From IMG/VR virus record IMGVR_UViG_3300045988_153285, positions 64,001 through 128,000 of that record: a stretch of DNA of 64,000 bases; one strand, 5' to 3'. The stretch comes from a virus. The number at the start of each line of letters is the position of its first letter. Position 1 is the stretch's first letter. The notes under the pieces are model-generated. The model was given only the letters and a program-made list of their open reading frames with translations. It had not been told where the DNA came from and did no database searches. The position numbers and the translations under genes were made by a program. Of this stretch, positions 1 to 64,000 are shown in pieces.

Positions 1-101
1 ATATAAATTAAAATAATACAATAAATATATTAAATTTACGAATATTATTGAATAAAATGGAAAGTATAATAAATGATGTTTAGTTTAAAGGAGATGTATT
101 T

Positions 102-626
102 ATGGGAACAATAGGTTTTTTTGGAATTAAGAAAGGTAATTTATATAAAAGGTGTTATACTTTCTATGATGCGTATCCATCATGCTTAGGAATTGAGATT
201 GTTAAATTTATAAATAATTCTACAATTCAAGAAATTAATAGCATATATGATAATATAGTGTTGGTAAATATGGATGACTTCCCTACAAGAAATCAATTTT
301 CTGATTGTGTATCGAATGGTTTTTATTCTAATCAAGAGTTTGGAGATGCTTGGGAATATATTATAAGGACTCCGAAAGATTTTGATCTAAGTATTTATAA
401 AAATTTTAGATATATGATAGATTTTGATAATGAAGAAAATAGAAGTAATTATAATTATTGGGACTATAACTATGTAATAAATTTAAATGAAAACACCTTA
501 GATATATACTACGATAATAAAAAAGATATTTATATTAGCTTTCCATTAGACGATGTTAATACACAAGATATGATAGAATTAGAAGATGATATAAATAGTG
601 ACGAATGTAATGAATATATTTATTAA
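102..626 (+). CDS. hypothetical protein, 174 aa
   Basis: Uninterrupted ORF with GGAG RBS (aaaggagatgtattt-ATG); no family motif recognised. Confidence 0.5.
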   Translation: MGTIGFFGIKKGNLYKRCYTFYDAYPSCLGIEIVKFINNSTIQEINSIYDNIVLVNMDDFPTRNQFSDCVSNGFYSNQEFGDAWEYIIRTPKDFDLSIYKNFRYMIDFDNEENRSNYNYWDYNYVINLNENTLDIYYDNKKDIYISFPLDDVNTQDMIELEDDINSDECNEYIY

Positions 627-741
627 TATCAAATCAGGTTGTATAAGTATTATTATATGAATCATATTTGAAAGAAGAGTAGATAAGATAAATTATTGAT
701 TATATCCTAAGTATGATGTAAAACTGCTTAAAAATAATTAA

Positions 742-790
742 ATATAAATTAATAAAATATGTTGACAAAAGAAAAGATTGGCATTATAAT
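742..790 (+). promoter_or_regulatory. sigma-A type promoter with conserved 17-bp upstream box (copy 1 of 8)
   Basis: ATATAAATTAATAAAAT-atg-TTGACA(762-767)-17 bp-TATAAT(785-790); heads the small-gene plus cas gene string. Confidence 0.75.
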
Positions 791-854
791 TAAATCATAC
801 CAAAGAGATACAAAAAAACAAAAGACTATAATATATATAAAAGGAGGTGAAAGC

Positions 855-1088
855 ATGAAAATTGAAACTTTGGAAATGGGGAAAAGATATGTTGTGACAA
901 AAGATTCTATGAGTGGATTTGCCAATATTGTAGGAATGGCTGAAGGAAATAAAATTGAATTTAAAAATGTTGATATTGACAATGTGGAGCTATATAAAGA
1001 AGATGATAAGATGTTTATCAAATTAGAAGTAAAAAGAGATAGTAAAGGCAACTTTGGATACATAACAACACCAAAGAATGAATTTTAA
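855..1088 (+). CDS. hypothetical small protein, 77 aa
   Basis: Track ORF 759-1088, but ATG 759 lies inside the promoter -35 region. Internal ATG 855 has AAGGAGGTGA 4 nt upstream. Confidence 0.6.
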   Translation: MKIETLEMGKRYVVTKDSMSGFANIVGMAEGNKIEFKNVDIDNVELYKEDDKMFIKLEVKRDSKGNFGYITTPKNEF

Positions 1089-1122
1089 TATAAAATAATA
1101 AATAAAAAGGAGACAAGAAGAT

Positions 1123-1299
1123 ATGTCATCAACAATAATAGCAAATTTTAAGGAAATTATAACGGATGAAAAAGGAATTCAAATAGAATGTGATAAAACA
1201 ATTCAAAGTGTAGGAGAAACATTAATATTGAAAGGAGAACGAGTAATTAAAGATTTTGAAATAAAAATTGAAAATGAAAATAAGGAGGTGAAAGTATGA
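1123..1299 (+). CDS. hypothetical small protein, 58 aa (paralog of 1696-1863)
   Basis: Below track threshold; RBS aaaaggaga upstream; stop overlaps next start (gtATGA); shares IITDE.G..I... and EIKI strings with 1696-1863. Confidence 0.5.
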   Translation: MSSTIIANFKEIITDEKGIQIECDKTIQSVGETLILKGERVIKDFEIKIENENKEVKV

Positions 1300-1679
1300 A
1301 TACATTACTAAAAGTTTATCAATGCAGCATATCAAAGAAGTTTGAATATAAACTGATCAATGATCTTGAAAATTATACGGTTAAATCAATACATAATAAT
1401 AGAGTCGCTATTGAAGATAATGTAGGAGATATCTTGTGGATAGAAGACAGGGGTTATGGCTTAGATATTGGAGACACCATAAGATTTAATAGATACGGTA
1501 TCAAAATATATAATGAAGATGGATATGTGGTAGATACAAAAGATTATAATTACAAGACTAGAGTTAAAGATATAAAAAATACTAAAGGTAAATATTTTGC
1601 AATTAAATCAATTTTAAGTTCATGTGACGAATTAAGAAAAACTATTGAAGAAGCTGAAATTGATTTTAATATAAATTAA
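1296..1679 (+). CDS. hypothetical protein, 127 aa
   Basis: ORF with AAGGAGGTG RBS, translationally coupled to 1123-1299. Confidence 0.6.
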   Translation: MNTLLKVYQCSISKKFEYKLINDLENYTVKSIHNNRVAIEDNVGDILWIEDRGYGLDIGDTIRFNRYGIKIYNEDGYVVDTKDYNYKTRVKDIKNTKGKYFAIKSILSSCDELRKTIEEAEIDFNIN

Positions 1680-1695
1680 TAAAGGAGATGAGAGT

Positions 1696-1863
1696 GTGAA
1701 GACAGTAACAGTAAAATTAAAAACAATAATTACAGATGAAGAAGGAAATGAAATAGATTTAGAAAACATAGATCAATACATAAGATAAACGTTGACATTA
1801 AAAATTGTACAAGTTAGCACAAGTAAAATTATTAAAGAAAAAGAAATAAAAATCAATAAATAA
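1696..1863 (+). pseudogene. paralog of 1123-1299 interrupted by an in-frame TAA (1786-1788)
   Basis: GTG start after AAAGGAG. The reading frame continues after the TAA to a stop at 1861-1863. The TAA aligns with a GAA codon in the intact paralog. Confidence 0.45.
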
Positions 1864-1878
1864 AAGGAGAGATAGAAA

Positions 1879-2391
1879 ATGAAATTAAATTTAATACCAG
1901 ATTTAATACTCATAAATGAAAGAGGAGAGAGGTTTAAAATTATAACTCAGCAAGCTGTAATTAGAATAGGTGATAGCGTTTTAATTAAAAATGACTTTGA
2001 CATTAGAGATGAATTAGAAAAGTTTTTTGAAGAATCAAAAGAATCAATTCTTGAATTAGAATACCATCCGTTAGATCAAAATCTAGAGCATACAGAAATA
2101 ACTACTAAGCGAATATATATTAATACATATGAAGTTAGAGAGTATTATAACACTGAAAAGGATAAAAATGATATGATATATATGTTTAGCGTTTCTGGTG
2201 AGAATACAAAGGAATTAATTGAAGAATATAGACACAGACAGATAGTTGAAAGTTTAAAAGAACAAAAATCAAAAGAAATAAAGTTTATTGATGAGGCAAC
2301 TCTGGAAAGATTGCTTAACGAAATGAGTGTAGGAACGCAAGAATTGATAGATTCAAATACAGAATTAATAAATAAATATTTAAGTATATAG
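1879..2391 (+). CDS. hypothetical acidic protein, 170 aa
   Basis: ORF with aaaaggagag RBS; last gene before cas5. Confidence 0.6.
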   Translation: MKLNLIPDLILINERGERFKIITQQAVIRIGDSVLIKNDFDIRDELEKFFEESKESILELEYHPLDQNLEHTEITTKRIYINTYEVREYYNTEKDKNDMIYMFSVSGENTKELIEEYRHRQIVESLKEQKSKEIKFIDEATLERLLNEMSVGTQELIDSNTELINKYLSI

Positions 2392-2465
2392 ATTTTAATA
2401 TAAATTAACAAAACATAGAGGATAAAGCCCGGAGTTGGGCTATTAAATAGATGTGAGGTGAAGAA

Positions 2466-3098
2466 ATGAGGTTTCATAAATTAATTATAACTGGCAATGA
2501 AGCACACTTTAAAATACCTATGAGAAGCAAATTTCAAAATACTTATAAAATACCTCCTATATCAACAGTTGTAGGAATGCTGCAAAATATATACGGTAAA
2601 GATATAAATGACTTTGAATTAGGATATTTCATAGAGTATGAGGGTGTTGGAAAAGAAATAATAAATATATATAAAGAAGTAAATAGTAGGCAGAAGACAT
2701 TGACTTGTTCAGATAGATTTACGAAAGATATTATATATGTTGAAAATTTATATAAAGTTAGGCTAGTTATCTACCACAATATAGAAAAAGAAATTGAATT
2801 CAAAGAACCATTGACATTAGGGAAAGCTAATTATCTTGCAAATGTAAAATTTGAGGAGATAGATCTAACTAATAAATTAGGTTTAGGATATAATCAATAT
2901 ACCCCTAAAGATATAGGATATGGTATGTTGACAAGAATTAATACAGTAACAAAATACAATGAATTAAAAGGTTATTATGAATATGAAACAGAACTTGTAA
3001 GAGAAAACTTGGAGGAGTTTGAGTTAGATAATAACTATGATGAAACAGAAGATATGAATATTTATGTGTGGAAATGGAGTGATGGAGTTGTTAGTTAA
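2466..3098 (+). CDS. cas5: CRISPR-associated Cas5 (type I)
   Basis: N-terminus MRFHKLIITGNEAHFKIPMRS..NTYKIPPISTVVGMLQNIYG matches the Cas5 hallmark (a.Fr.P...sY..PPpSt..G.l....G); GAGGTGA RBS; sits in a cas gene string. Confidence 0.75.
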   Translation: MRFHKLIITGNEAHFKIPMRSKFQNTYKIPPISTVVGMLQNIYGKDINDFELGYFIEYEGVGKEIINIYKEVNSRQKTLTCSDRFTKDIIYVENLYKVRLVIYHNIEKEIEFKEPLTLGKANYLANVKFEEIDLTNKLGLGYNQYTPKDIGYGMLTRINTVTKYNELKGYYEYETELVRENLEEFELDNNYDETEDMNIYVWKWSDGVVS

Positions 3099-3849
3099 AA
3101 AAATAATAATTATGAAAGGTGAGGGCAAGTTAGATTATAATTATCATTATGAATTAATGAAGAGATTATACGAAGCATTAACATTAACGGATGATAAGAA
3201 GGCATTGAATCTACACGATAAAGGAATAAGTGTAGATAAAAAGAGGTTTAAATTATTTAATTATACATTATGTTTCGATAAGGAAGTAAAATATTTAAAT
3301 GATGGTATAAGTTTTAATAAGGATAATAGTATTAGATTAATTCTATCAGGTGATACAGATATATTAAATCCAATAATTAAAGGACTTATAACTAAACAAG
3401 TAATAACCTTGAATGGTGTTGAATTAAAAATAACAAATATGGAAGACGATAAAAAATTTAACTTCAAAAATATAATGCTATATAAAGTAAGATCACCAAT
3501 AGTTGAAACAATATTTAATGGCGAAAGAATAGAGTATTTAAATCCTTGTCAAGAGAATTGGTATTCAGCTTTGGCAAATAACTTAAAGAGGAAATATAAA
3601 GCGGTGTACAATGAAGAATATGAAGGTGAGTTATTCTTTGACATAGAAGATATATTAAATGTTAAAAAGAAAATGATAAATAAAATCAAGAAAGGATTTT
3701 TAATAGGATATACAGATTTTGAAATATTTGTACAAGCTACTCCTAAGATGCAAAAAATAGCTTATAATTTAGGATTAGGGCAAAATAGTAGCTTAGGAAT
3801 GGGAGCTATATCTTATATAAAAGGGTGGAACAATGAACAGGACATATGA
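3082..3849 (+). CDS. cas6: CRISPR-associated endoribonuclease Cas6
   Basis: C-terminal glycine-rich loop GLGQNSSLGMGAIS (G.G.....G.G), RAMP-like N-terminal strand, RFKLFNYTLCF. Start chosen at ATG 3082 (track 3064), overlapping the cas5 end. Confidence 0.7.
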   Translation: MELLVKKIIIMKGEGKLDYNYHYELMKRLYEALTLTDDKKALNLHDKGISVDKKRFKLFNYTLCFDKEVKYLNDGISFNKDNSIRLILSGDTDILNPIIKGLITKQVITLNGVELKITNMEDDKKFNFKNIMLYKVRSPIVETIFNGERIEYLNPCQENWYSALANNLKRKYKAVYNEEYEGELFFDIEDILNVKKKMINKIKKGFLIGYTDFEIFVQATPKMQKIAYNLGLGQNSSLGMGAISYIKGWNNEQDI

Positions 3850-4960
3850 TGTATTCGTAGATAATGGGTTATTTGTGTTAGCATACTATCTAGATAAGGA
3901 AATAGAGAATATAACAGAACAAGATATATTTGATAGTATAGATATGATGTGTGAAAAGATAAATGAATTTACTGGTTGTGAAAAGTATTCAAATTTAAAA
4001 TCTATGATGTTTGCAAATTCAGCTTTGACACAACCTAATTCATCAAAGAAAGTAAATGACTTTTTAAATGACTTTTATAATTCTAAAGGCGAAGAAACTT
4101 GTTGTACTTGTGGAAATAAAACAGCAAATATAATTAATGGAGATTTAAATAGAAGTTATCTACCAAATAAAGTAGCACATACATTTTATAATTTCTCTAA
4201 CAATCTACAGGGTGTAAATGTATGTGGAATATGTTCTATACTTACAATGTTTAGTATATTAAATGCTAGAGTATATGGATTGGCTTACTTATATAATAGC
4301 GATAATGATGACTTTATGTATGACTATACATATGAACGTCAAGAAGAGAATGAAAGAGATATATTATCAGAAGCAAAGAAAAGTAAAGAAAAGATCAATA
4401 GTTTAAATACAGTTGAGCAGTTGATGAATAATACTAAGCTATATGATGGATATATACAAATATATAAATTCAACAATTCAGGACAAAACCAAGACATAGA
4501 AATACAAGATATTAATTCTGAAAGTGTTAAGCTATTATCCAATATAGTTAAATCAGGTATGTTAAATGAATTTAAACAATTTGGCTTAATGTACAATCTA
4601 ATCATAGGCAATTTAAGAAACGTATATCTTAGTAAAATAACAAAAGATGATGAAATGATATGCAGCAAAGAATTATTTGAGATGTTAAATAGAGAGGTAA
4701 ATATTTTGAGTAGTGAATTAAAGGAAGTTATAATAAAAATAGCCGATAGGTTAAAGAATGAAGATATAGTTAAGATAAGAAAAACATTAAAATTAATAAA
4801 AACATTTAAAGACTTTGAAGGGTTTATTGTTAACCTAGCTGAAGATTATAAAGATAAATATGATGACAATTTGTATACAGTTGACGAGTATATGCTATTA
4901 GATAATAAATTAAAATATAACCAAATTAAAAATTTAATGATAGTAAGCTTGATGCAATAA
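3833..4960 (+). CDS. cas8b: candidate Cas8b-like large subunit (short, 375 aa)
   Basis: Positioned between cas6 and cas7; Cys cluster CCTCGN...VCGICS; helical Lys/Glu-rich C-terminal half that could supply a Cas11-like small subunit. Assigned mainly by position. Confidence 0.5.
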   Translation: MNRTYDVFVDNGLFVLAYYLDKEIENITEQDIFDSIDMMCEKINEFTGCEKYSNLKSMMFANSALTQPNSSKKVNDFLNDFYNSKGEETCCTCGNKTANIINGDLNRSYLPNKVAHTFYNFSNNLQGVNVCGICSILTMFSILNARVYGLAYLYNSDNDDFMYDYTYERQEENERDILSEAKKSKEKINSLNTVEQLMNNTKLYDGYIQIYKFNNSGQNQDIEIQDINSESVKLLSNIVKSGMLNEFKQFGLMYNLIIGNLRNVYLSKITKDDEMICSKELFEMLNREVNILSSELKEVIIKIADRLKNEDIVKIRKTLKLIKTFKDFEGFIVNLAEDYKDKYDDNLYTVDEYMLLDNKLKYNQIKNLMIVSLMQ

Positions 4961-5000
4961 TAAATTAATAAAATTAGAGAGTAAAAGGAGAATGATTAAA

Positions 5001-6029
5001 ATGAAAAGAATGTTAAATATGAATTATGTTATTGAAGTTTTAGATGGAAGATTAAACGGAAGTGCAGTGGAAGTCGAAAGCAATAAGGATGGATTTAATA
5101 ATACAACTTTTACAAAGAAAATCGGTGGTAGAGCTAAGGTATCGGCAGTTTGTCAAAAGGCGAACATGAAGAATTATATGTGTGAAGTATTAAAAGAAAC
5201 TATTGGAGAAAAGACTAAAGAAGGTAAGCAAGTTTTAAGCACGCCTAACCCATATGCTAATTTATTTGATGATGTATTTGGATTTATGTTGGCGACAAAG
5301 ATTGAGTTGACTGAGGGAGAATATAAGGAATTACCAGAAGATGTGCAAAAAACATTTGAAAAGAAAGGTAAAAAATATACTAATAATGCAACTAAAAAGA
5401 GAACTTCTAACTTACAAATGAGTTCATTAATCAATGTGAGTAATAGAAGGGTTGAAACGGAATTTAATGTTTGTGCTACAAGTGGAGACAATATGCCTTA
5501 TAAAATTGAAACATATTCAGGAATTATGTCAGGAATAGCAAACTTAAATATAGGTAAGATAGGTGAATTTACTATATCAGATATTGCGTCAGAATATAGA
5601 GATTATACTGTTAAAGAAGCAGAAGTTCTAGGGGTTGAAAACCTATCAAGAGAAGATAAATTATCTAGAATAGAAAAGACATTAAATGCTTTAGAGTATA
5701 TGTCAATCAAAGGAAATCAGACAAACCACTTAACAGATACAAAACCTAAATTTATTATAATGGCTGATTATGGTTGGGGTAATAATGTATTCCAAGGAGT
5801 GATAAATAAAGATGGGTTAGATATAGAAATGCTAAAAGAATCAATAGATCAAAATGAAGAATATAGATTAAGTAATATTTATATAGGAGTTAATAAATTC
5901 TTTGATAAAAATAACAATTTAGATTTAGATACAATAAGAGAAGAATTAAGGGAATATGATTTCATAAAAGTTGATAATGTTCATAATACATTTAAGAATT
6001 ACATAAAAGAGTTAAGAGAGAATATTTAA
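5001..6029 (+). CDS. cas7: CRISPR-associated Cas7 (backbone subunit)
   Basis: About 340-aa RAMP-like ORF with KIGGRAKVSAVCQKANMKNYM resembling the Cas7/Cst2 r..iSg.a.K..iR motif. ATG 5001 has better RBS spacing than track start 4992. Confidence 0.6.
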   Translation: MKRMLNMNYVIEVLDGRLNGSAVEVESNKDGFNNTTFTKKIGGRAKVSAVCQKANMKNYMCEVLKETIGEKTKEGKQVLSTPNPYANLFDDVFGFMLATKIELTEGEYKELPEDVQKTFEKKGKKYTNNATKKRTSNLQMSSLINVSNRRVETEFNVCATSGDNMPYKIETYSGIMSGIANLNIGKIGEFTISDIASEYRDYTVKEAEVLGVENLSREDKLSRIEKTLNALEYMSIKGNQTNHLTDTKPKFIIMADYGWGNNVFQGVINKDGLDIEMLKESIDQNEEYRLSNIYIGVNKFFDKNNNLDLDTIREELREYDFIKVDNVHNTFKNYIKELRENI

Positions 6030-6127
6030 TTGTCGATGTAGTGGGATTTTAACACTAAGTTAATTAGACAGAAAATAAAAGACGGTCAGAGGTTGCAAAC
6101 TTAGTGTTAGAGCCAATATAGATACGG
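6030..6127 (+). promoter_or_regulatory. CRISPR leader with 11-12 bp inverted repeat and candidate promoter
   Basis: taacactaagt(6050-6060) / acttagtgtta(6099-6109) around a 38-nt loop; TTGCAA(6093-6098)-18 bp-TATAGA(6117-6122) would start transcription at repeat 1. Confidence 0.3.
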
Positions 6128-6751
6128 GTATTAATTATAATATGGTTATTTATAAACAACAACCTTTTAAAGTCATTATGAGTATTCCAATATGTATTAA
6201 TTATAATATGGTTATTTATAAATGAATGTGGACTCCTATATAAGATTATCTTCGATACGTATTAATTATAATATGGTTATTTATAAATATATATAAATTT
6301 TATGTGTTTCTTCAGTTTCTTCTGTATTAATTATAATATGGTTATTTATAAACTATAAATAGGTGTTTTTAACTCTAAATAGTGTCAAAGTATTAATTAT
6401 AATATGGTTATTTATAAATAGATCTACTGCCATTTTAATATTCATACTATTCACTTGTATTAATTATAATATGGTTATTTATAAACAGTGGTAATTCTAT
6501 TGTCAATATATCACCATAACTAGTTTTAATATTAATAATATATATTTATAAAGGTAGTAACAGTTTTAGGAACATTGACAGCTGGTGTGTTTAAATAGTA
6601 ATATAATTATTTATAAATGGTGTAGTGGTATACGACATCGAAAATAAAACTGCGTTTAAATATTAATATAGTTATTTATAAACTAAAAGGTCTTCCTAGA
6701 TACATTACATCTAAAGAAGTGTATTAATTATAATATAAATTATTTTATAAA
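6128..6751 (+). CRISPR. CRISPR array, 10 repeats / 9 spacers
   Basis: Repeat GTATTAATTATAATATGGTTATTTATAAA(C/T) is perfect at 6128, 6194, 6259, 6324, 6390 and 6457. Variant or degenerate copies lie at 6523, 6589, 6654 and 6721. Period is 65-67 bp and spacers are 35-37 nt, all unique. Confidence 0.95.
6575..6604 (+). promoter_or_regulatory. possible internal promoter inside the array trailer
   Basis: TTGACA(6575-6580, in spacer 7)-18 bp-TAATAT(6599-6604, in repeat 8); could be chance in AT-rich DNA. Confidence 0.2.
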
Positions 6752-6771
6752 ATTGAAAGGAGTAAAATAAA

Positions 6772-8718
6772 ATGTTAAAAGAGTATATAGCAAAAACAGA
6801 TAAAACATCATTAGAAGATCATAATAAAGAATTGACAAATATACTGAAACAAATAATTGATATATATGATATAGAAAATATAAAAGAATCATTGAATAGA
6901 TGTATTGAATATCATGACATAGGAAAATGTTCTGATTCAATGCAGAATAGATTAAAGGGAAAAGACGTTAATTTTATAAGACATGAATGGGTCGGTGCAA
7001 GTGTAGAAGATCTGACAGATGGTGAAAGATTGGCTATATTAACGCATCATAAAGATATTAGTAAGTCATTAGAATTAATTGATAATGATAAGTATATATC
7101 TGAATTAGAAGAAATTAAAAATAAATTGAATATAAAATTAAATAATATTGATGATTTTGTTAAGAAAGTAAACAAACCGAGGTGTAGTATTACAAAAGAT
7201 TTAGATAATATATTATTAAAGGGTTATTTAAATTATTGTGACCATTTATGCAGTGCAGGTAATATAACTATAGATAAAGGATTTAATTCTTTAGATAGGT
7301 TTAAGTTTAATAATTATAATTCTATTCAGAATAAGGCTATGAATACACGTGAAGACGTTTTAATTCAAGCTATGACAGGATTAGGTAAAACAGCGGCATC
7401 TTTATTGTGGAGTAATAATGTTCAGAATGAGGACAAGTCTAAAAGAATATATTACATATTGCCTTTTACAGCTAGTATAAATTCGTTATATAAAGATTTC
7501 TTAAATAGAAATATATCTACCACAATGCTACATAACAAAGCTGAATATTTTATGGACAAGCTGCATGATGAATATAATTATAAATTAATGAAGTATTCCA
7601 CTAAGCAACTAAACATTTGCACAATATTTCAATTAGCTAAGGCAATTTTTAGTTGTAAGAACTTTGAAATGATAATAGCTCAAATGAAGAACAGTATAAT
7701 AATGGTAGATGAAATACATTGCTTTGATTTAAAAACGTTGAGTTATATTTTAGAATTATTAAGATTTTTAAAATATAAATTAGGATGTAGAATCTGCATA
7801 ATGAGTGCCAGTATTCCAACTGTATTACAGAAATTAATAAAGGATAGACTAGATATAAACAAGGTTATATATGCTGATAAGCGTGATCTAAAAATAAGAC
7901 ATAGAATACATAGAGTAAATAAAACAATTTTGGATGACATAGAAAAAATAGAAAATGATCTAAGAGAAGGAAAGCAAGTTATAGTGTGTGTTAATAATGT
8001 GACTACTTCTCAGATTATTTATAAAATATTTAAAGATAAATATAAGTGCAAGTTGATACATGGTAGATTTAATACTAGAGATAGAGAAATTGCTGAACAA
8101 GGGCTAAAGGTAAATCAATTACTTGTAGGAACTCAAGCGATAGAAGTATCTTTAGATATTAGTTATGATACAATGTATACTGAAATAGCGCCATATGATG
8201 CTTTACTGCAGCGTTTCGGAAGAGTTAATAGACGTGGAGAAAAGGGAATTAGAGATATTTACATATATAATAACTATAATAAATGTATTTATGATGATGA
8301 ACTAATTAATAATACAGATTTAGTTATAGATGAAATAATACATAATGATAATAGAATAATACTTGAAGAAAAAGTTGAGCATTATTTGGATAAAGTTTAT
8401 ACATATATAGATATAATTAGCTACAATAAATATTCAAATTCTTTAGAAAAAGTAATAAATAATCTTAGAGTTGGAAACTATAATAAAAATAGCATAAAAG
8501 AGATGATTCAAGGTGATACAGTATCGGTAATTCCTGAGTGTCTATTGGAAGAATATCAAAAGCTGATAAATGATAGAGAATATTTAAAAGCTCAATCACT
8601 AAAGTTAAATATTAATTCTAATAGAATGAAATACAATAGTGACATGTTTTATATATGCGATGATTTGGTTGTATCGAAATATAAATATACATATGATTTA
8701 GGTATGGAGTTTGAATGA
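6772..8718 (+). CDS. cas3: Cas3 HD-nuclease/SF2 helicase
   Basis: N-terminal HD domain (CIEYHDIGK, RHEW, LTHHKD). Helicase motifs MTGLGKTAASL, VDEIHCFD, MSASIP, GTQAIEVSLDIS, QRFGRVNRRG. AAAGGAG RBS. Confidence 0.9.
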   Translation: MLKEYIAKTDKTSLEDHNKELTNILKQIIDIYDIENIKESLNRCIEYHDIGKCSDSMQNRLKGKDVNFIRHEWVGASVEDLTDGERLAILTHHKDISKSLELIDNDKYISELEEIKNKLNIKLNNIDDFVKKVNKPRCSITKDLDNILLKGYLNYCDHLCSAGNITIDKGFNSLDRFKFNNYNSIQNKAMNTREDVLIQAMTGLGKTAASLLWSNNVQNEDKSKRIYYILPFTASINSLYKDFLNRNISTTMLHNKAEYFMDKLHDEYNYKLMKYSTKQLNICTIFQLAKAIFSCKNFEMIIAQMKNSIIMVDEIHCFDLKTLSYILELLRFLKYKLGCRICIMSASIPTVLQKLIKDRLDINKVIYADKRDLKIRHRIHRVNKTILDDIEKIENDLREGKQVIVCVNNVTTSQIIYKIFKDKYKCKLIHGRFNTRDREIAEQGLKVNQLLVGTQAIEVSLDISYDTMYTEIAPYDALLQRFGRVNRRGEKGIRDIYIYNNYNKCIYDDELINNTDLVIDEIIHNDNRIILEEKVEHYLDKVYTYIDIISYNKYSNSLEKVINNLRVGNYNKNSIKEMIQGDTVSVIPECLLEEYQKLINDREYLKAQSLKLNINSNRMKYNSDMFYICDDLVVSKYKYTYDLGMEFE

Positions 8719-8738
8719 ACTTAAATTAAAAATTTAAA

Positions 8739-8787
8739 ATATAAATTAATAAAATAGATTGACAAATTTAAATAAGTAATATATAAT
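8739..8787 (+). promoter_or_regulatory. conserved-box promoter (copy 2)
   Basis: ATATAAATTAATAAAAT-aga-TTGACA(8759-8764)-17 bp-TATAAT(8782-8787), 21 bp after the cas3 stop. Confidence 0.75.
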
Positions 8788-9039
8788 AAATAATGTAAGA
8801 TTAAGGCATAAACCTTTAGCATAAGTATTGTCATAAATAATATGAAGGGCGGTGATTATCAAATTTAGGATAAATACATAAAACAAATCAAGATCAAACC
8901 AATTTAAATAAAAAATAAACCTATTCACACATTATTAACGGTTGACCTTAATTGGTCAATCTGAGGATATTGAAAAGTATCTTGAGATTAACTAATTAAG
9001 AAATGACTTATAAATTAAAATTACAAAGGAGTTGGGAAA

Positions 9040-9213
9040 ATGAATGCATATGAATTAATGAAAGAATTCTATGATCTAGATAATGAGATTTTAGAATTGG
9101 TAAACAAGAAAAATAAGAAAGATGTAGCCTGGATGGACAAGGCGATCGATTCAAAATTAAGCAGACAATTAGAAATTAAGCACACTTTAGAAAGAATAAA
9201 TGTAGTGTTATAG
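9040..9213 (+). CDS. hypothetical small protein, 57 aa
   Basis: Below track threshold; RBS aaaggagttggg; frame verified codon by codon. Confidence 0.5.
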   Translation: MNAYELMKEFYDLDNEILELVNKKNKKDVAWMDKAIDSKLSRQLEIKHTLERINVVL

Positions 9214-9223
9214 GAGGGAAATT

Positions 9224-9610
9224 ATGAATCATAAATACATAGAAGAAATTATGGATATAGAAGAATCGCCTTATGGTTGGTCAAAAAATACGGGTAGAGA
9301 TGAAATGTGGGAAGATCAAAGAAGAATATATGGGTTTGATGAAAGAGAAACTTGGAGTTTAGATGCAACATTTATCTATTGGCTATATGAACGATTGAGA
9401 ATGTTTAATGAAGTAAATTGTATAAATACTGATTTTCATACATTCGATATAAACGGTAAGAAACTTACTCAACAAGAATGCATAGATACTATGATAGCTA
9501 AATGCAAAGATTATATAGCATATCGAGGAATAGATGATAATTATACTTACAACTTAAAAAATGAAATTTTAGATATATGGAAAGAATGCATTCATGCTAT
9601 GTGGTGGTAG
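9224..9610 (+). CDS. hypothetical protein, 128 aa
   Basis: ORF with AGGAGGG RBS. Confidence 0.6.
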   Translation: MNHKYIEEIMDIEESPYGWSKNTGRDEMWEDQRRIYGFDERETWSLDATFIYWLYERLRMFNEVNCINTDFHTFDINGKKLTQQECIDTMIAKCKDYIAYRGIDDNYTYNLKNEILDIWKECIHAMWW

Positions 9611-9647
9611 CAAATAAAATGCGGATTTTAAAAGGAGTTGAATAAAA

Positions 9648-9992
9648 ATGGATAGAGAAATAATATTGAAAGCTTTAAGAATTCATGAAGATGGAATAAT
9701 GCAATTTACTCTAGGAGAGGTAACTGTTGACGAAGATGAGACAATTAAATGTAGTGATATTTATAGTTCAGAATGGGAAAATCATAGTGAAGAAATAGCA
9801 GTTTCGATAGAAAGTATATTATGTAGTAATATGCCTTTAAAACCAGATATGTTGGTAGGTATTATAGTAAATGAATGGTTTAACTATGTTGGTAGTGATG
9901 TTGAAGATTTAAACTATTATGGTTTACTAGGTGTAGCTATAGAAATTATAGATTATATAGAAAGATGCCAACACAAGGATGATAATGAATAA
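9648..9992 (+). CDS. hypothetical acidic protein, 114 aa
   Basis: ORF with AAAGGAG RBS. Confidence 0.6.
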   Translation: MDREIILKALRIHEDGIMQFTLGEVTVDEDETIKCSDIYSSEWENHSEEIAVSIESILCSNMPLKPDMLVGIIVNEWFNYVGSDVEDLNYYGLLGVAIEIIDYIERCQHKDDNE

Positions 9993-10024
9993 TTTGAAAT
10001 TATTGCGAAAGAGAGGATTTTAAA

Positions 10025-10219
10025 ATGGTAGTAAGAAATGATAAAGATAAATTAGTTTTTCAAAGTTTAGATTTTGAAATAATGTTAGGTGATATGTTTA
10101 TGAAGTGTAGGAATGTAAGAGAAGCACAGTGGTTAGCATGTCAATTACAGGGTGCAGTTGAAGTTATTTGTGAAGAGAAAATAGATGAAATTGAAAGTGA
10201 CGAAGAATTATGTGATTAA
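10025..10219 (+). CDS. hypothetical acidic protein, 64 aa
   Basis: ORF with GAGAGG RBS. Confidence 0.5.
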   Translation: MVVRNDKDKLVFQSLDFEIMLGDMFMKCRNVREAQWLACQLQGAVEVICEEKIDEIESDEELCD

Positions 10220-10261
10220 TTCGCAATTTAAAAATAGGACTTTGAAATTATTACGAGGTAA

Positions 10262-10363
10262 ATGGATATGGTTATTTTAAAAATTATAATAGGGTTATGG
10301 TTAATTTTTGTAGTAATACCAACATTATTTAAGATACTAGAAGATTACAAACATACAAAATAA
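10262..10363 (+). CDS. small membrane peptide, 33 aa
   Basis: MDMVILKIIIGLWLIFVVIPTLF...; one hydrophobic helix; weak RBS (acgaggtaa). Confidence 0.35.
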   Translation: MDMVILKIIIGLWLIFVVIPTLFKILEDYKHTK

Positions 10364-10420
10364 AGGAGTAGCAAGTAATTCATTAAAAAAATTAACGAAT
10401 AACTGAAAGGAATAATATAA

Positions 10421-10588
10421 ATGATGGTTTATCAAATAATGGAATATAGAAATTGTGACGAACATTATAGTTGGGGAATGTATTCATCTGAAGAGAATGC
10501 AATACTTTACTTAAAACAAATGGGATGGGATAAATGTGAGGATTTTGAGATTGTATCATATGAGTTGGATGAAAAACTAAAAAAGTAA
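10421..10588 (+). CDS. hypothetical small protein, 55 aa
   Basis: Same-strand ORF filling the gap; the track shows only an antisense ORF here (10392-10619). Confidence 0.45.
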   Translation: MMVYQIMEYRNCDEHYSWGMYSSEENAILYLKQMGWDKCEDFEIVSYELDEKLKK

Positions 10589-10756
10589 TTCGCAATTCAA
10601 AAAGTGAAGAAAAATACATAGATAATTATGAAGAGTATTCAAATATTGGCGATGACGGATGTCTAGAGTACGAAAGTAAATTAGGGTATTAATTAAACAA
10701 TAATTAAAAATAAAGTGAATTGATAAAATTACAAATTTATTAAAGTAGGTGATAAT

Positions 10757-10966
10757 ATGAAAAAGAAATTAACAGAAGAAATAGAAAATCTGGAAAGAAA
10801 AATGATGACTGCTGGAACAATATTAGCTGTAATATCATCAATAGGATTGTATGCTTGGGCGTTTGGTGTAAAGATGGTGCATCCAGCAATATATGTTATG
10901 AGTATGATAATGGGTATAGGTTTCTTTTGCACAGCCTGTGTAGATAAAATTAGGAGGTTGAAATAG
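10757..10966 (+). CDS. small membrane protein, 69 aa
   Basis: Two predicted TM helices; AGGTGA RBS. Confidence 0.55.
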   Translation: MKKKLTEEIENLERKMMTAGTILAVISSIGLYAWAFGVKMVHPAIYVMSMIMGIGFFCTACVDKIRRLK

Positions 10967-10967
10967 T

Positions 10968-11405
10968 ATGAAGCAAATAGTTGTAAATGGTGGAGAAACT
11001 CATGGAGGTTTATTAACTCCAAAGTGGGTAGTTGAATATTACAGAAGAAAAGGAATTGAGTTATTTGTTTATATTCCTGAATTAATAGAAGATGATTATA
11101 TATATGAATTGAAAGATCCAAACGAGTTAGATGATAACACTTGTATATATTGTCCGTTATATTTACTTGATAATTTTGGTGATATTATTGAAGAAATTAC
11201 CGATGAAATAGCTCAGAAAGTAGTTAATGAATACGATATGTTTAAAGATAGAGAAGATAAGACATTAATAGATATTGTAAAAGAAATAAATAATGAAAAC
11301 TTAGTTAAAATCATAGAGATACCTGATGACGTTGAATATGACGTTGCAGAATCAGATTGTGGATTTAGGGAATGGGTAGAAGAAAAACATAGAGTGTGGT
11401 ATTAG
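10968..11405 (+). CDS. hypothetical acidic protein, 145 aa
   Basis: ORF with AGGAGG RBS. Confidence 0.6.
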   Translation: MKQIVVNGGETHGGLLTPKWVVEYYRRKGIELFVYIPELIEDDYIYELKDPNELDDNTCIYCPLYLLDNFGDIIEEITDEIAQKVVNEYDMFKDREDKTLIDIVKEINNENLVKIIEIPDDVEYDVAESDCGFREWVEEKHRVWY

Positions 11406-11416
11406 GAGAAATAAAT

Positions 11417-11542
11417 ATGAGTAGATTAGATTTTGAATTAAAGGTTATTGATATATTAGATGATGCATGTAGTAATTTATCAAGTCAAGAATTTGACAAG
11501 CTGTTAGAAAGAATTAAAGAAACTATTGAAGATTATGAATAA
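11417..11542 (+). CDS. hypothetical small protein, 41 aa
   Basis: AGGAGA RBS, compact spacing. Confidence 0.4.
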   Translation: MSRLDFELKVIDILDDACSNLSSQEFDKLLERIKETIEDYE

Positions 11543-11560
11543 GTATATGGAGGCAAGAAT

Positions 11561-11812
11561 ATGAAAAATGATAATAAAGTTATACAAACAAATATAACAA
11601 ACAAGGATATAGTTATTAGAATACCAAAGAAATTTATACTTGAAGACTTTGAAAACAGTGTTGAAGACTATAAAATAAAAGGAAATAAGAAAACAGAATT
11701 TATAAATGAATTCACTAAGTTATTTAGAGAACATATAGAAGATAACGATATTGTAGTTGATATTTATGATGAATTATGTGATACAGATTTAGTTAAAGAA
11801 ATAGAATATTAA
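11561..11812 (+). CDS. hypothetical protein, 83 aa
   Basis: ORF with GGAGG RBS. Confidence 0.55.
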   Translation: MKNDNKVIQTNITNKDIVIRIPKKFILEDFENSVEDYKIKGNKKTEFINEFTKLFREHIEDNDIVVDIYDELCDTDLVKEIEY

Positions 11813-11851
11813 AATTAATAAAAACAATATTTTAAAGAAAGGAATAGTTAT

Positions 11852-11989
11852 ATGTTTTGCTTAGATGACAATAAATATAAAAATGAGTGCGGTAAGTGTT
11901 GTAGTAAATGTATGGATAGACAAACTCATTTATGTAAGAAAAGCTGTTTTTATTTGACTTTTAGATGTGATGAATGTATGCATCAATAA
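11852..11989 (+). CDS. Cys-rich small protein, 45 aa
   Basis: Eleven Cys in 45 aa, including CGKCCSKC and CDEC. Confidence 0.4.
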   Translation: MFCLDDNKYKNECGKCCSKCMDRQTHLCKKSCFYLTFRCDECMHQ

Positions 11990-12011
11990 AATAATAGGAG
12001 GTTAATTAGAT

Positions 12012-62649: not shown

Positions 62650-62790
62650 CATGCTTGAACCTCCCACGACTAAAGTCATAGGATTCTTGGGTAATCTCAA
62701 CCATTGTCAAGAAATTTACCAAGCTATCCTCCTAGTTCCTAAGATTTTCTTATTTATTATTTATAATTCTAATTTTCTTAACCCTTCATT
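62650..62790 (-). ncRNA. putative TnpB omega-RNA (right-end element RNA)
   Basis: GC-richer structured tract overlapping and following the tnpB 3' end. Hairpin 62662-62683 forms 8 bp only on the minus strand (two G-U pairs). Confidence 0.4.
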
Positions 62791-63915
62791 TAATATATTT
62801 ATACTTGCATTATAATCTCTATCTATTTTTAACCCACATTTTTCACATATATAAGTTCTACATCCTAAATCCTTTGTTTGATTGCTTTGTGATCCACAAT
62901 TGCTACATAATTGACTTGATGGGTAGAATCTATCTATTCTTGATATTAACTTATAATTCCATCTAGCCTTATATTCTAATTCTCTATTAAATTCAAAGAA
63001 ACTTGCATCTGATATTGATTTTGCTAACTTATGATTTTTAATCATACCACTAGAATTTAAATCTTCTAAACAGATAATATCATAATCTTTGATTAATTTA
63101 GTTGATAATTTTTGTAGAAAATCTATTCTACAATTAGTTATCTTTTTATGCCATTTATTAACTTTTAACCTTTGTTTATTTCTATTATTAGAACCTTTCT
63201 TTCTTTTACTCAGTTTTCTTTGAGATTTAACCAATTGTTGCTCGTACTTTATATAAAATTTAGGATTATTTATAATTTCATTATCTGACGTAGTAGCAAA
63301 CTCTTTTATCCCTAAATCTATTCCTATTACTGCCCCAGTTTGTTCTAATGGTTTAGACACTACACCTACACAACACAAACTTATATAATACTTATTATCT
63401 GTATCTCTTGATAATGTAGCAGACACAATTCTCCCTTCATATTGTCTTGAATACGCAATTTTAATTTGTTTTACTTTGGGTAATTTAATTTTGCAATTTT
63501 GTTTTTTAAATTTGCCAGTAGAAGTATATTTAATTTCTTTTTCTAATACCGCAATATTACCATTAGTATAATTTATTTTAATACTTTGATAATTATTTTT
63601 ATAAGATTTAAACTTAGGAAAACCACATTCTTTTTTAAAGAATTTTAAGAATGTCTGATACTGATATTTAATGGTATTTTGTAGAACAGATTTTTCACAC
63701 TCTTTAAGCCAAGGATTTTTATTTTTAAGAAGTGTTAATAATTTCGACATTTTATTATAATTTAAAACACTTTTATGATGGTTTAATCTATGTTTATTTA
63801 TATTTAAGAAATAGTTCCAAACGTATCTTTTGGCTTTAAACATATTTTCTATCTGTTCTATTTGATTATTTTTAGGATATATTCTATATTTAAATCCTTT
63901 TTCTATTGTTTCCAT
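62761..63915 (-). CDS. tnpB: TnpB (IS200/IS605-family OrfB) RNA-guided nuclease
   Basis: RuvC motifs IGIDLGIKEFATTS, CLEDLN, DRDYNASINI; zinc finger CSNCG...CEKCG. ATG 63915 follows GAGGTG. Confidence 0.85.
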   Translation of the reverse strand: METIEKGFKYRIYPKNNQIEQIENMFKAKRYVWNYFLNINKHRLNHHKSVLNYNKMSKLLTLLKNKNPWLKECEKSVLQNTIKYQYQTFLKFFKKECGFPKFKSYKNNYQSIKINYTNGNIAVLEKEIKYTSTGKFKKQNCKIKLPKVKQIKIAYSRQYEGRIVSATLSRDTDNKYYISLCCVGVVSKPLEQTGAVIGIDLGIKEFATTSDNEIINNPKFYIKYEQQLVKSQRKLSKRKKGSNNRNKQRLKVNKWHKKITNCRIDFLQKLSTKLIKDYDIICLEDLNSSGMIKNHKLAKSISDASFFEFNRELEYKARWNYKLISRIDRFYPSSQLCSNCGSQSNQTKDLGCRTYICEKCGLKIDRDYNASINILNEGLRKLEL

Positions 63916-64000
63916 TATTAACACCTCGCTTTCTATTTTTCTTTTTGGGTTTTAATATAGTTTATTATTTGTTCCTCGGTATTTTCTGATACTGTAGCTA

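Follow-up and report, generated by a model that had tools for sequence, protein, structure and literature searches.

In the DNA considered here the last repeat of a CRISPR array runs almost directly into the ribosome-binding site of cas3, and this raises the question of how the nuclease gene of such a locus is expressed: from a promoter of its own, or from the transcript which also carries the guides. The array contains repeats of more than one kind, and a related question is whether these reflect the ageing of the array or some other history. The stretch analysed, referred to as the window, comprises 64,000 nucleotides of viral DNA (IMG/VR record IMGVR_UViG_3300045988_153285, positions 64,001 to 128,000) with a low GC content of ~26%. 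An earlier note, made from the sequence alone, had described the repeat sub-families and proposed the 3' end of the pre-crRNA as the message from which cas3 is translated.

A type I-B module with an array inside the operon

Between positions 2466 and 8718 the order is cas5b-cas6b-cas8b-cas7b-leader-10-repeat array-cas3. The features of the locus are as follows.

2397..2412, + strand: copy of motif AATATAAATTAAYAAA just upstream of cas5
2466..3098, + strand: cas5b (TIGR01895 cas_Cas5t, 9.6e-18; PADLOC Cas5b, 2.5e-18)
3064..3849, + strand: cas6b, pre-crRNA endoribonuclease, overlapping cas5 and cas8 (TIGR01877, 1.2e-18; Pfam Cas_Cas6_C, 4.2e-15; PADLOC Cas6b, 4.9e-39)
3833..4960, + strand: cas8b, large subunit, 375 aa (PADLOC Cas8b PDLC02050, 2.7e-11, residues 21-373)
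4992..6029, + strand: cas7b (TIGR02585 cas_Cst2_DevR, 2.1e-20; PADLOC Cas7, 2e-23)
6030..6127, + strand: CRISPR leader, 98 nt, with a conserved 17-bp stem around a variable loop
6128..6751, + strand: CRISPR array, 10 repeats, spacers of 36-38 nt
6128..6485, + strand: repeats R1-R6, type A, all identical (GTATTAATTATAATATGGTTATTTATAAA; starts 6128, 6194, 6259, 6324, 6390, 6457), with spacers 1-5
6419..6456, + strand: spacer 5, matching IMG/VR elements L109/L110 at 37/38 with a 5'-CC PAM
6486..6720, + strand: trailer block of spacer 6, R7, spacer 7, R8, spacer 8, R9 and spacer 9
6523..6552, + strand: R7, 30 nt
6589..6617, + strand: R8
6654..6682, + strand: R9, GTTTAAATATTAATATAGTTATTTATAAA
6721..6751, + strand: R10, terminal hybrid repeat, its first 16 nt of type A and its 3' part the family terminal repeat AAATTATTT[T/C]ATAAA
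6752..6771, + strand: cas3 5' UTR, consisting of ATTG, the Shine-Dalgarno sequence (SD) AAAGGAG (6756-6762) and a 9-nt spacer
6772..8718, + strand: cas3, HD nuclease-helicase fusion, 648 aa, ATG at 6772 (TIGR01587 cas3_core, 9.4e-63; TIGR01596 cas3_HD, 2e-11; PADLOC Cas3b, 8.6e-137)
8738..8787, + strand: next copy of motif AATATAAATTAAYAAA (8738-8753), then TTGACA-17-TATAAT (8759-8787), just after cas3

The locus belongs to type I-B because Cas5b, Cas6b, Cas8b, Cas7b and the HD-helicase Cas3 match the corresponding protein families in PADLOC, NCBIfam and Pfam. PADLOC recognises the full set of Cas8b, Cas7, Cas5 and Cas6, and NCBIfam type I-B models match Cas5 and Cas7; for cas8b the Pfam and NCBIfam profile searches gave no match. 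Cas3 joins an HD nuclease to an SF2 helicase, and its HD residues H48 and D49 are invariant in alignment A1. The genes from cas5 to cas7 overlap or are tightly packed. An adaptation module is typical of type I-B systems, if not obligatory; a tblastn search of the 64-kb window with the presumed Cas4, Cas1 and Cas2 ORFs of 12 canonical I-B loci, selected by size and position and not by HMM, gave no match, and cas1, cas2 and cas4 were not found in the +/-6 kb flanks of the relatives. From its sequence the locus is read as a phage-borne type I-B interference module lacking adaptation genes, with an apparently working array inside the cas operon.

The remainder of the window carries phage genes for a DNA polymerase, DnaB, a primase, RecJ, an exonuclease V/Dda-like helicase, NrdD, a ligase, an endolysin, tail proteins, an integrase and a transposase. 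Metagenomic contigs of ~130-157 kb from human-gut studies encode identical or near-identical Cas3 proteins. Among deposited phages the best Cas3 match is 27% identical (phage D-1873, 24%), megablast of window positions 1-12000 against deposited phages gave no match, and a Cas3-based locus search of IMG/VR found nothing. Transposon-related genes were observed in two settings: IS605 OrfB/TnpB genes with a Cas12f1-like TNB domain lie directly 3' of cas3 in the lineage of 62% Cas3 identity (L104 2641-3774, L105 4207-5130, L106 3782-4915), and the transposase of the window (phrog_506) lies at its far end, at 62761-63924.

Motif AATATAAATTAAYAAA occurs 14 times in the window against 0.48 expected, always on the + strand (741, 1087, 1668, 2397, 8738, 12854, 13951, 20045, 26394, 27092, 34352, 34723, 40911 and 42410) and mostly at or just past the ends of + strand genes. 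It brackets cas5-cas3, with no copy between 2412 and 8738, and may be a phage-specific transcription-unit or regulatory signal. The element at 8759-8787 is the only perfect TTGACA-17-TATAAT in 1800-9300. A palindrome, TTGACCTTAATTGGTCAA, lies ~150 nt past it at 8941-8958, upstream of a small ORF at ~9040, and the two probably serve the next transcription unit as promoter and operator.

Within the leader, 6044-6061 pairs with 6098-6114 (MFE -21.5 kcal/mol, z = -3.1; none of 200 shuffles as good). The stem is kept in 7 relatives, with one compensatory change of an A-U to a U-A pair, while its 36-nt loop diverges; no T-run follows it. It may serve as a site of RNA processing, of protein binding or of integration. 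No family was returned by an Rfam scan of 1-12000, so neither the leader stem nor the repeats represent a known RNA family. More distant relatives carry other long-range inverted repeats at the leader position, CTGTCGACCATA/TATGGTCGACAG in L009 and TTGCAGTA.AC../..GT.TACTGCAA in L019, L023, L026 and L105.

Repeat sub-families and their origin

A repeat scan bears out much of the earlier description of the array. R1-R6 are identical, R7 carries a 1-nt indel (one extra base), the GG at repeat positions 17-18 is altered throughout R7-R10, and R10 keeps consensus positions 1-16 before diverging and ending 4 nt (ATTG) ahead of the cas3 SD. R8 and R9 do share differences from the consensus as claimed, but the counts required correction: they differ from each other at two positions (10 and 18), not about three, and have four identical substitutions (positions 3, 5, 9 and 17), with position 10 changed in both. 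R10 has the appearance of a hybrid, with the modern type A repeat as one parent and the family's old conserved terminal repeat as the other. Relatives routinely carry AG at positions 17-18, even in their leader-proximal, newest repeats (L001), and GG is therefore not essential there. A repeat hairpin involving this GG was also considered and rejected, given the AG of the relatives and the prediction that the repeats are unstructured.

Degeneration of the trailer end is generally known to be common in arrays (e.g. PMC4869251), and metagenomic contigs of this phage family often break inside the array, both of which would suit an account of the variant repeats as random mutational decay or assembly errors. 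This account is virtually untenable, being refuted by independent assemblies, shared substitutions and the recurrence of alleles. The earlier note had proposed alignment of the array with related genomes as a check, and R7-R10 prove to be base-for-base identical in several independent assemblies from different samples, and so are not artefacts. Simulation of independent decay gives P~1e-4 for sharing as high as that of R8 and R9. Moreover, L003 has R9 itself as its main repeat, and L007 and L021 employ a version with one base changed; all three belong to a sister lineage with 80-82% Cas3 identity. In L005 and L014, whose leader-repeat junction also differs, the repeats nearest the leader are R8-like (GTTTAAATAGTAATATG...). 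L103 has two to three R7-like repeats, bearing the insertion of R7, in mid-array with type A repeats on either side.

The closest comparisons are with an independent assembly from another sample (L011; the window's own contig is L012) and with three samples of 97% Cas3 identity (L016, L017 and L018). The L011 array equals that of the window minus spacer 8 and R9 (L011 5883-5949 against window 6589-6720). In the three 97% samples everything from spacer 6 to R10 is present, with R7-R10 identical to the window and two SNPs in each of spacers 7 and 9, seed positions 6 and 8 among them, and all six leader-side spacers differ from the window's five. Such polarised turnover is expected of a functional array, and the pattern is read as spacer turnover at the leader end over an old inherited trailer block (spacer 6 to R10). 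The types of the repeats, written from leader to cas3 with Z for the terminal repeat, are as follows.

Window: AAAAAADBCZ
L016: AaAAAAADBCZ
L103: AaAAaDBBDDaaZ
L005: BBAAAAAaAZ
L003: CCCBCZ

Several spacers are common to otherwise different arrays. The deletion and duplication variants seen between samples (3 repeats in L107 against 8 in L105, a duplicated first unit in L106, and the loss of spacer 8 and R9 in L011) are direct evidence of repeat-repeat recombination. Since the types found at the trailer end of the window are standard in sister phages, where their place may also be next to the leader (L005, L014) or in mid-array (L103), the arrays are recombinant mosaics. Thus the suggestion that R7-R9 are an older repeat variant rather than random decay holds in so far as they form an inherited block, but is too simple: on these comparisons the sub-families are population alleles, coexisting in the mosaic arrays of co-circulating phages, and not simply old versus new.

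Conservation of the array-cas3 junction

The junction ...ATTT[T/C]ATAAA-ATTGAAAGGAG[T/A]AAAATAAAATG is near-invariant in all loci with 80-100% Cas3 identity (L001, L003, L005-8, L014-18, L021 and L103 for the part ATTGAAAGGAG[T/A]AAAATAAAATG, with a single-base change or indel in two loci). The 3' part of the terminal repeat is likewise common to every locus in this range. The last spacer exists in at least six unrelated versions across the same lineages. The succession of leader, array and degenerate last repeat running into the SD is found also at 75% (L004) and 62% (L104-108) Cas3 identity, and in L009/L010 (58%) a gap of ~45-60 nt separates the last repeat-like element from the SD. Seven loci of GTDB representatives reach at least 42% Cas3 identity, and in six of them (two of one Clostridium MAG, Hathewaya limosa, Clostridium sp., Terrisporobacter and Alkaliphilus) an array, or else a one-spacer mini-array, ends at the cas3 SD; the exception is C. 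difficile CD160 (L024), in which cas3 directly follows cas7. L019/L025, L023 and L026 have their main array, which has a leader of its own, downstream of cas3 but retain a mini-array ahead of the gene.

Loci in which the genes run cas5-cas6-cas8-cas7-leader-array-cas3 and the last repeat adjoins the cas3 RBS are therefore found, with the exceptions named, from 100% down to ~42% Cas3 identity. Among 73 more distant I-B loci an array is nearby in at most one; their arrays lie ~2 kb or more downstream of cas3, or closer (0.3-1.9 kb downstream) in a handful.

The 8 nt directly following R10 (6752-6759, ATTGAAAG) match 7 of the 8 positions of AUUGAAAC, a widespread type I-B crRNA 5' tag (PMC3479195). 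The window's own repeats end in TTATAAA, unlike this tag, and ATTGAAAG is conserved only in lineages with at least 80% Cas3 identity. The likeness may be coincidence, or what remains of an ancestral repeat whose end became part of the cas3 SD.

Spacer targets

A single-spacer scan of IMG/VR revealed that one spacer common to L016, L001 and L103 exactly matches two elements, L110 and L109 (UViG_2791355323_000001 and UViG_3300029134_000285). By local BLAST, spacer 5 of the window (37/38) and three further spacers match these elements too, and the targeting spacers come from five arrays of the phage family. The five distinct protospacers (L110 790-827, 6891-6927, 8439-8476 and 8488-8525; L109 7496-7532) all have 5'-CC adjoining spacer position 1. 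It follows that the PAM is CCN and that the crRNAs are read on the + strand, in the same direction as cas3. The PAM of C. difficile is CCW, with which the 5'-CCN of the window agrees.

The targeted elements are 28-30 kb long and carry an integrase, an HTH repressor and a weak actin-like (ParM-type) gene; two of the five protospacers, including the spacer 5 site, fall within the gene with the weak ParM-type domain. L110 has no match among deposited phages, and the 54 spacers, concatenated, gave none in INPHARED. Comparison of the family's spacers with its own genomes produced only chance matches of 12-15 nt. Exact and degenerate repeat searches found nothing in IMG/VR or the GTDB representative genomes, and a repeat search of metagenomes yielded one related contig, L103.

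The spacers of the array are unique, are directed at foreign DNA and have a consistent PAM on the expected side, marks by which the window array is judged to be functional. From its orientation and the presence of cas6b we infer that it would be transcribed into crRNA precursors and processed by Cas6.

Expression of cas3

The best model for cas3 expression, and one considered probable though well short of certain, is read-through of the array combined with Cas6 cleavage. On this model cas3 would have no transcription unit of its own and would depend on read-through from a leader or cas5 promoter, either within a single cas5...cas7-array-cas3 transcript or as the continuation of a leader-initiated pre-crRNA. 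Cas6b is predicted to cut in each repeat, including the terminal one, ~8 nt from the repeat 3' end, and cleavage 8 nt from that end is established for type I-B Cas6b (PMC3479195). The cut in the terminal repeat would free a cas3 mRNA whose 5' end is short, defined and placed directly before the SD, and Cas3 output would be tied to both array transcription and Cas6 activity. These two forms are suggested because cas5-cas7 are packed, because inspection of the leader revealed no recognisable conserved sigma-A promoter and because motif AATATAAATTAAYAAA has no internal copy.

The comparative data fit the earlier proposal that the 3' end of the pre-crRNA serves as the message for cas3: the abutment holds from 100% to ~42% Cas3 identity, and neither a terminator nor a conserved -35 is apparent. 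The transcription itself we infer. A scan of 1800-9300 found no terminator-like site, consensus scans for terminators and sigma-70 promoters carrying no information at 26% GC. Against read-through it must be set that promoter-like hexamers are everywhere at this GC content, with a perfect TATAAT in R10 (6729-6734) and in every type A repeat; that R10 is degenerate and the repeats are predicted to be unstructured, making R10 only a putative Cas6b site; and that the layout is not obligatory, as CD160 (L024) and the gap in L009/L010 demonstrate. The conserved abutment could also have been inherited by descent without being used.

It is possible, though rather unlikely, that cas3 is instead driven mainly by an internal promoter made up of the last spacer or spacers and a repeat, read-through of the array being incidental. 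One candidate is the TATAAT of R10, a hexamer which every close relative other than L003 and L021 also has in its terminal repeat; the other, named in the earlier note, is TTGACA(6575)-18-TAATAT(6599-6604), which is indeed present with 10 of 12 matches. Internal promoters arising from AT-rich spacers are documented in the I-B arrays of C. thermocellum (PMC3479195). However, promoter-like sites are not enriched over shuffles (58 observed against 63.7 +/- 8.4 expected), and across the relatives no conserved promoter was found between array and cas3. The TATAAT is common to all type A repeats and so is not specific to cas3, and the -35 position belonging to that of R10 falls in the last spacer, whose variation between lineages makes a conserved -35 impossible. 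The earlier candidate is lineage-specific because spacer 7, which bears the TTGACA, is absent from most relatives, being confined to the lineages of the window and of L016; a transcript begun at 6575 would, moreover, still carry R9 and R10 upstream of cas3.

A different role for units 7-10 would be that of a degenerate regulatory mini-CRISPR of the CreR/CreA type, whose cr-like RNA would guide Cascade to a partially matching promoter and so autoregulate the cas genes or repress a toxin. Regulatory mini-arrays are known in cas loci (10.1101/2023.03.03.530964; 10.1101/2023.03.10.532045), and the chromosomal relatives L019/L025, L023 and L026 have a one-spacer mini-array at this position with the main array downstream of cas3. 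For the window this role is very improbable. Spacers 6-9 have neither a seed-type match nor a seed-proximal match of at least 12 nt in the cas locus or the rest of the window, and their length is normal; spacers 7-9 occur in no lineages but those of the window and L016, between which spacers 7 and 9 differ at seed positions. Neither a PAM-flanked seed match in or near the locus nor a conserved regulatory spacer, the hallmarks of CreR/CreTA, was thus found. The mini-array spacers of L019 and L026 have no local target either, and a CreR/CreTA role was rejected for window spacers 6-9 and the L019 mini-array for want of a seed target. L023, the relative which speaks for such regulation, is a Clostridium MAG with 53% Cas3 identity to the window and a mini-array before cas3 at 5840-5958. 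The first 14 nt of its spacer match 9874-9887 on the minus strand, codons 4-9 of a small, 73-aa ORF (9916-9695) just past the main array (chance expectation ~1e-3 to 1e-4), which looks like a seed-only target of the CreR/CreTA type, judging by the match.

An extension of the read-through model would make the repeat abutting the cas3 SD a conserved cis-regulatory device of the Clostridial and phage I-B clade, in which Cas6b cleavage creates a translatable or stabilised cas3 mRNA and binding of Cas6 or Cascade to the leftover handle might also throttle Cas3 translation. This is put forward tentatively and must be called unlikely as matters stand. If true, it would mean that the level of the nuclease is set post-transcriptionally by the crRNA-processing machinery, and it would explain why a one-spacer mini-array is kept before cas3 in chromosomal relatives whose main array lies elsewhere.

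Comparison with known systems

Canonical Clostridial type I-B systems, that of Clostridioides difficile among others (PMC4556805, PMC8406132), share with the window Cas5b, Cas6b, Cas8b, Cas7b and a fused HD-helicase Cas3. They also share AT-rich, unstructured repeats of 29-30 nt and spacers of 36-38 nt, and the Cas3 of the window is 52% identical to a C. difficile homologue. The canonical order is cas6-cas8-cas7-cas5-cas3-cas4-cas1-cas2 with flanking arrays, whereas that of the window is cas5-cas6-cas8-cas7-[leader+array]-cas3 without cas1, cas2 or cas4. Canonical arrays lie outside the cas operon; here the array lies inside it, between cas7 and cas3 and abutting the cas3 RBS, and does so clade-wide.

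Partial type I-B loci without an adaptation module are carried by Clostridium botulinum group III BoNT phages and plasmids (PMC8473940), and C. difficile carries partial cas operons (PMC4556805). Such loci resemble that of the window in being interference-only, in residing on Clostridial phages and mobile elements or as chromosomal duplicates, and in having spacers aimed at competing mobile elements. They differ in being only distantly related to it (Cas3 27% identical in the best deposited phage, 24% in D-1873). The embedded-array layout is not mentioned in the available text of either report, and a limited literature search found no I-B clade described with an array between cas7 and cas3 and its last repeat fused to the cas3 RBS. 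The CreR/CreTA/scaRNA-like mini-arrays and standalone repeats (10.1101/2023.03.03.530964; 10.1101/2023.03.10.532045) are similar to the window in that degenerate repeats within a cas operon adjoin a cas gene. The known regulatory mini-arrays act through a spacer which partly matches a promoter, whereas the searches of the window revealed no target of this kind; where type I-B is concerned, repeat-like elements are reported to be enriched close to cas6 rather than cas3. Adaptation-less phage and plasmid I-B loci, partial I-B operons, degenerate terminal repeats and regulatory mini-arrays in cas loci are all already known. What is new, on the literature searched, is the architecture, in which the array is embedded and its last repeat adjoins the cas3 RBS; the system itself is of a known type.

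Engineered Cas6/Csy4 sites placed upstream of an RBS were reportedly used by Qi and colleagues in 2012 to standardise mRNA 5' ends. The proposed mechanism would work in the same way: an RNase of the Cas6 family would cut a repeat directly 5' of the SD and leave the mRNA with a defined 5'-OH end. The synthetic device is built around a structured I-F repeat, whereas the arrangement in the window is natural, its repeat is unstructured and degenerate, and its cleavage is putative.

The type I-F CRISPR-Cas system of Vibrio phage ICP1, directed at the PLE island, is cited in PMC4556805. It carries cas1, and its arrays flank the cas genes. ICP1 is like the window phage in being a lytic-capable phage with a complete interference system and spacers against an integrative mobile element of the same host. 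The targets of the window family are the 28-30 kb elements L109/L110, and ICP1 differs in having a I-F system with cas1 and flanking arrays. By analogy the relation of the window family to L109/L110 resembles that of ICP1 to PLE, and the target may be a satellite, a prophage or a phage-plasmid.

Implications

The locus documents a previously undeposited family of gut phages whose interference-only type I-B system is directed against a mobile element of 28-30 kb. A further lesson of the locus is that different repeat sub-families in a single array need not reflect simple ageing and can be a record of recombination between arrays. If cas3 is expressed from the processed 3' end of the pre-crRNA, a natural Cas6-family RNase would shape the mRNA of its own system's nuclease, giving a built-in link between guide production and Cas3 dosage, which would matter because excess Cas3 is toxic. 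The conserved layout offers a testable model which spans a ~138-kb gut phage and chromosomal Clostridia with mini-arrays at the same spot.
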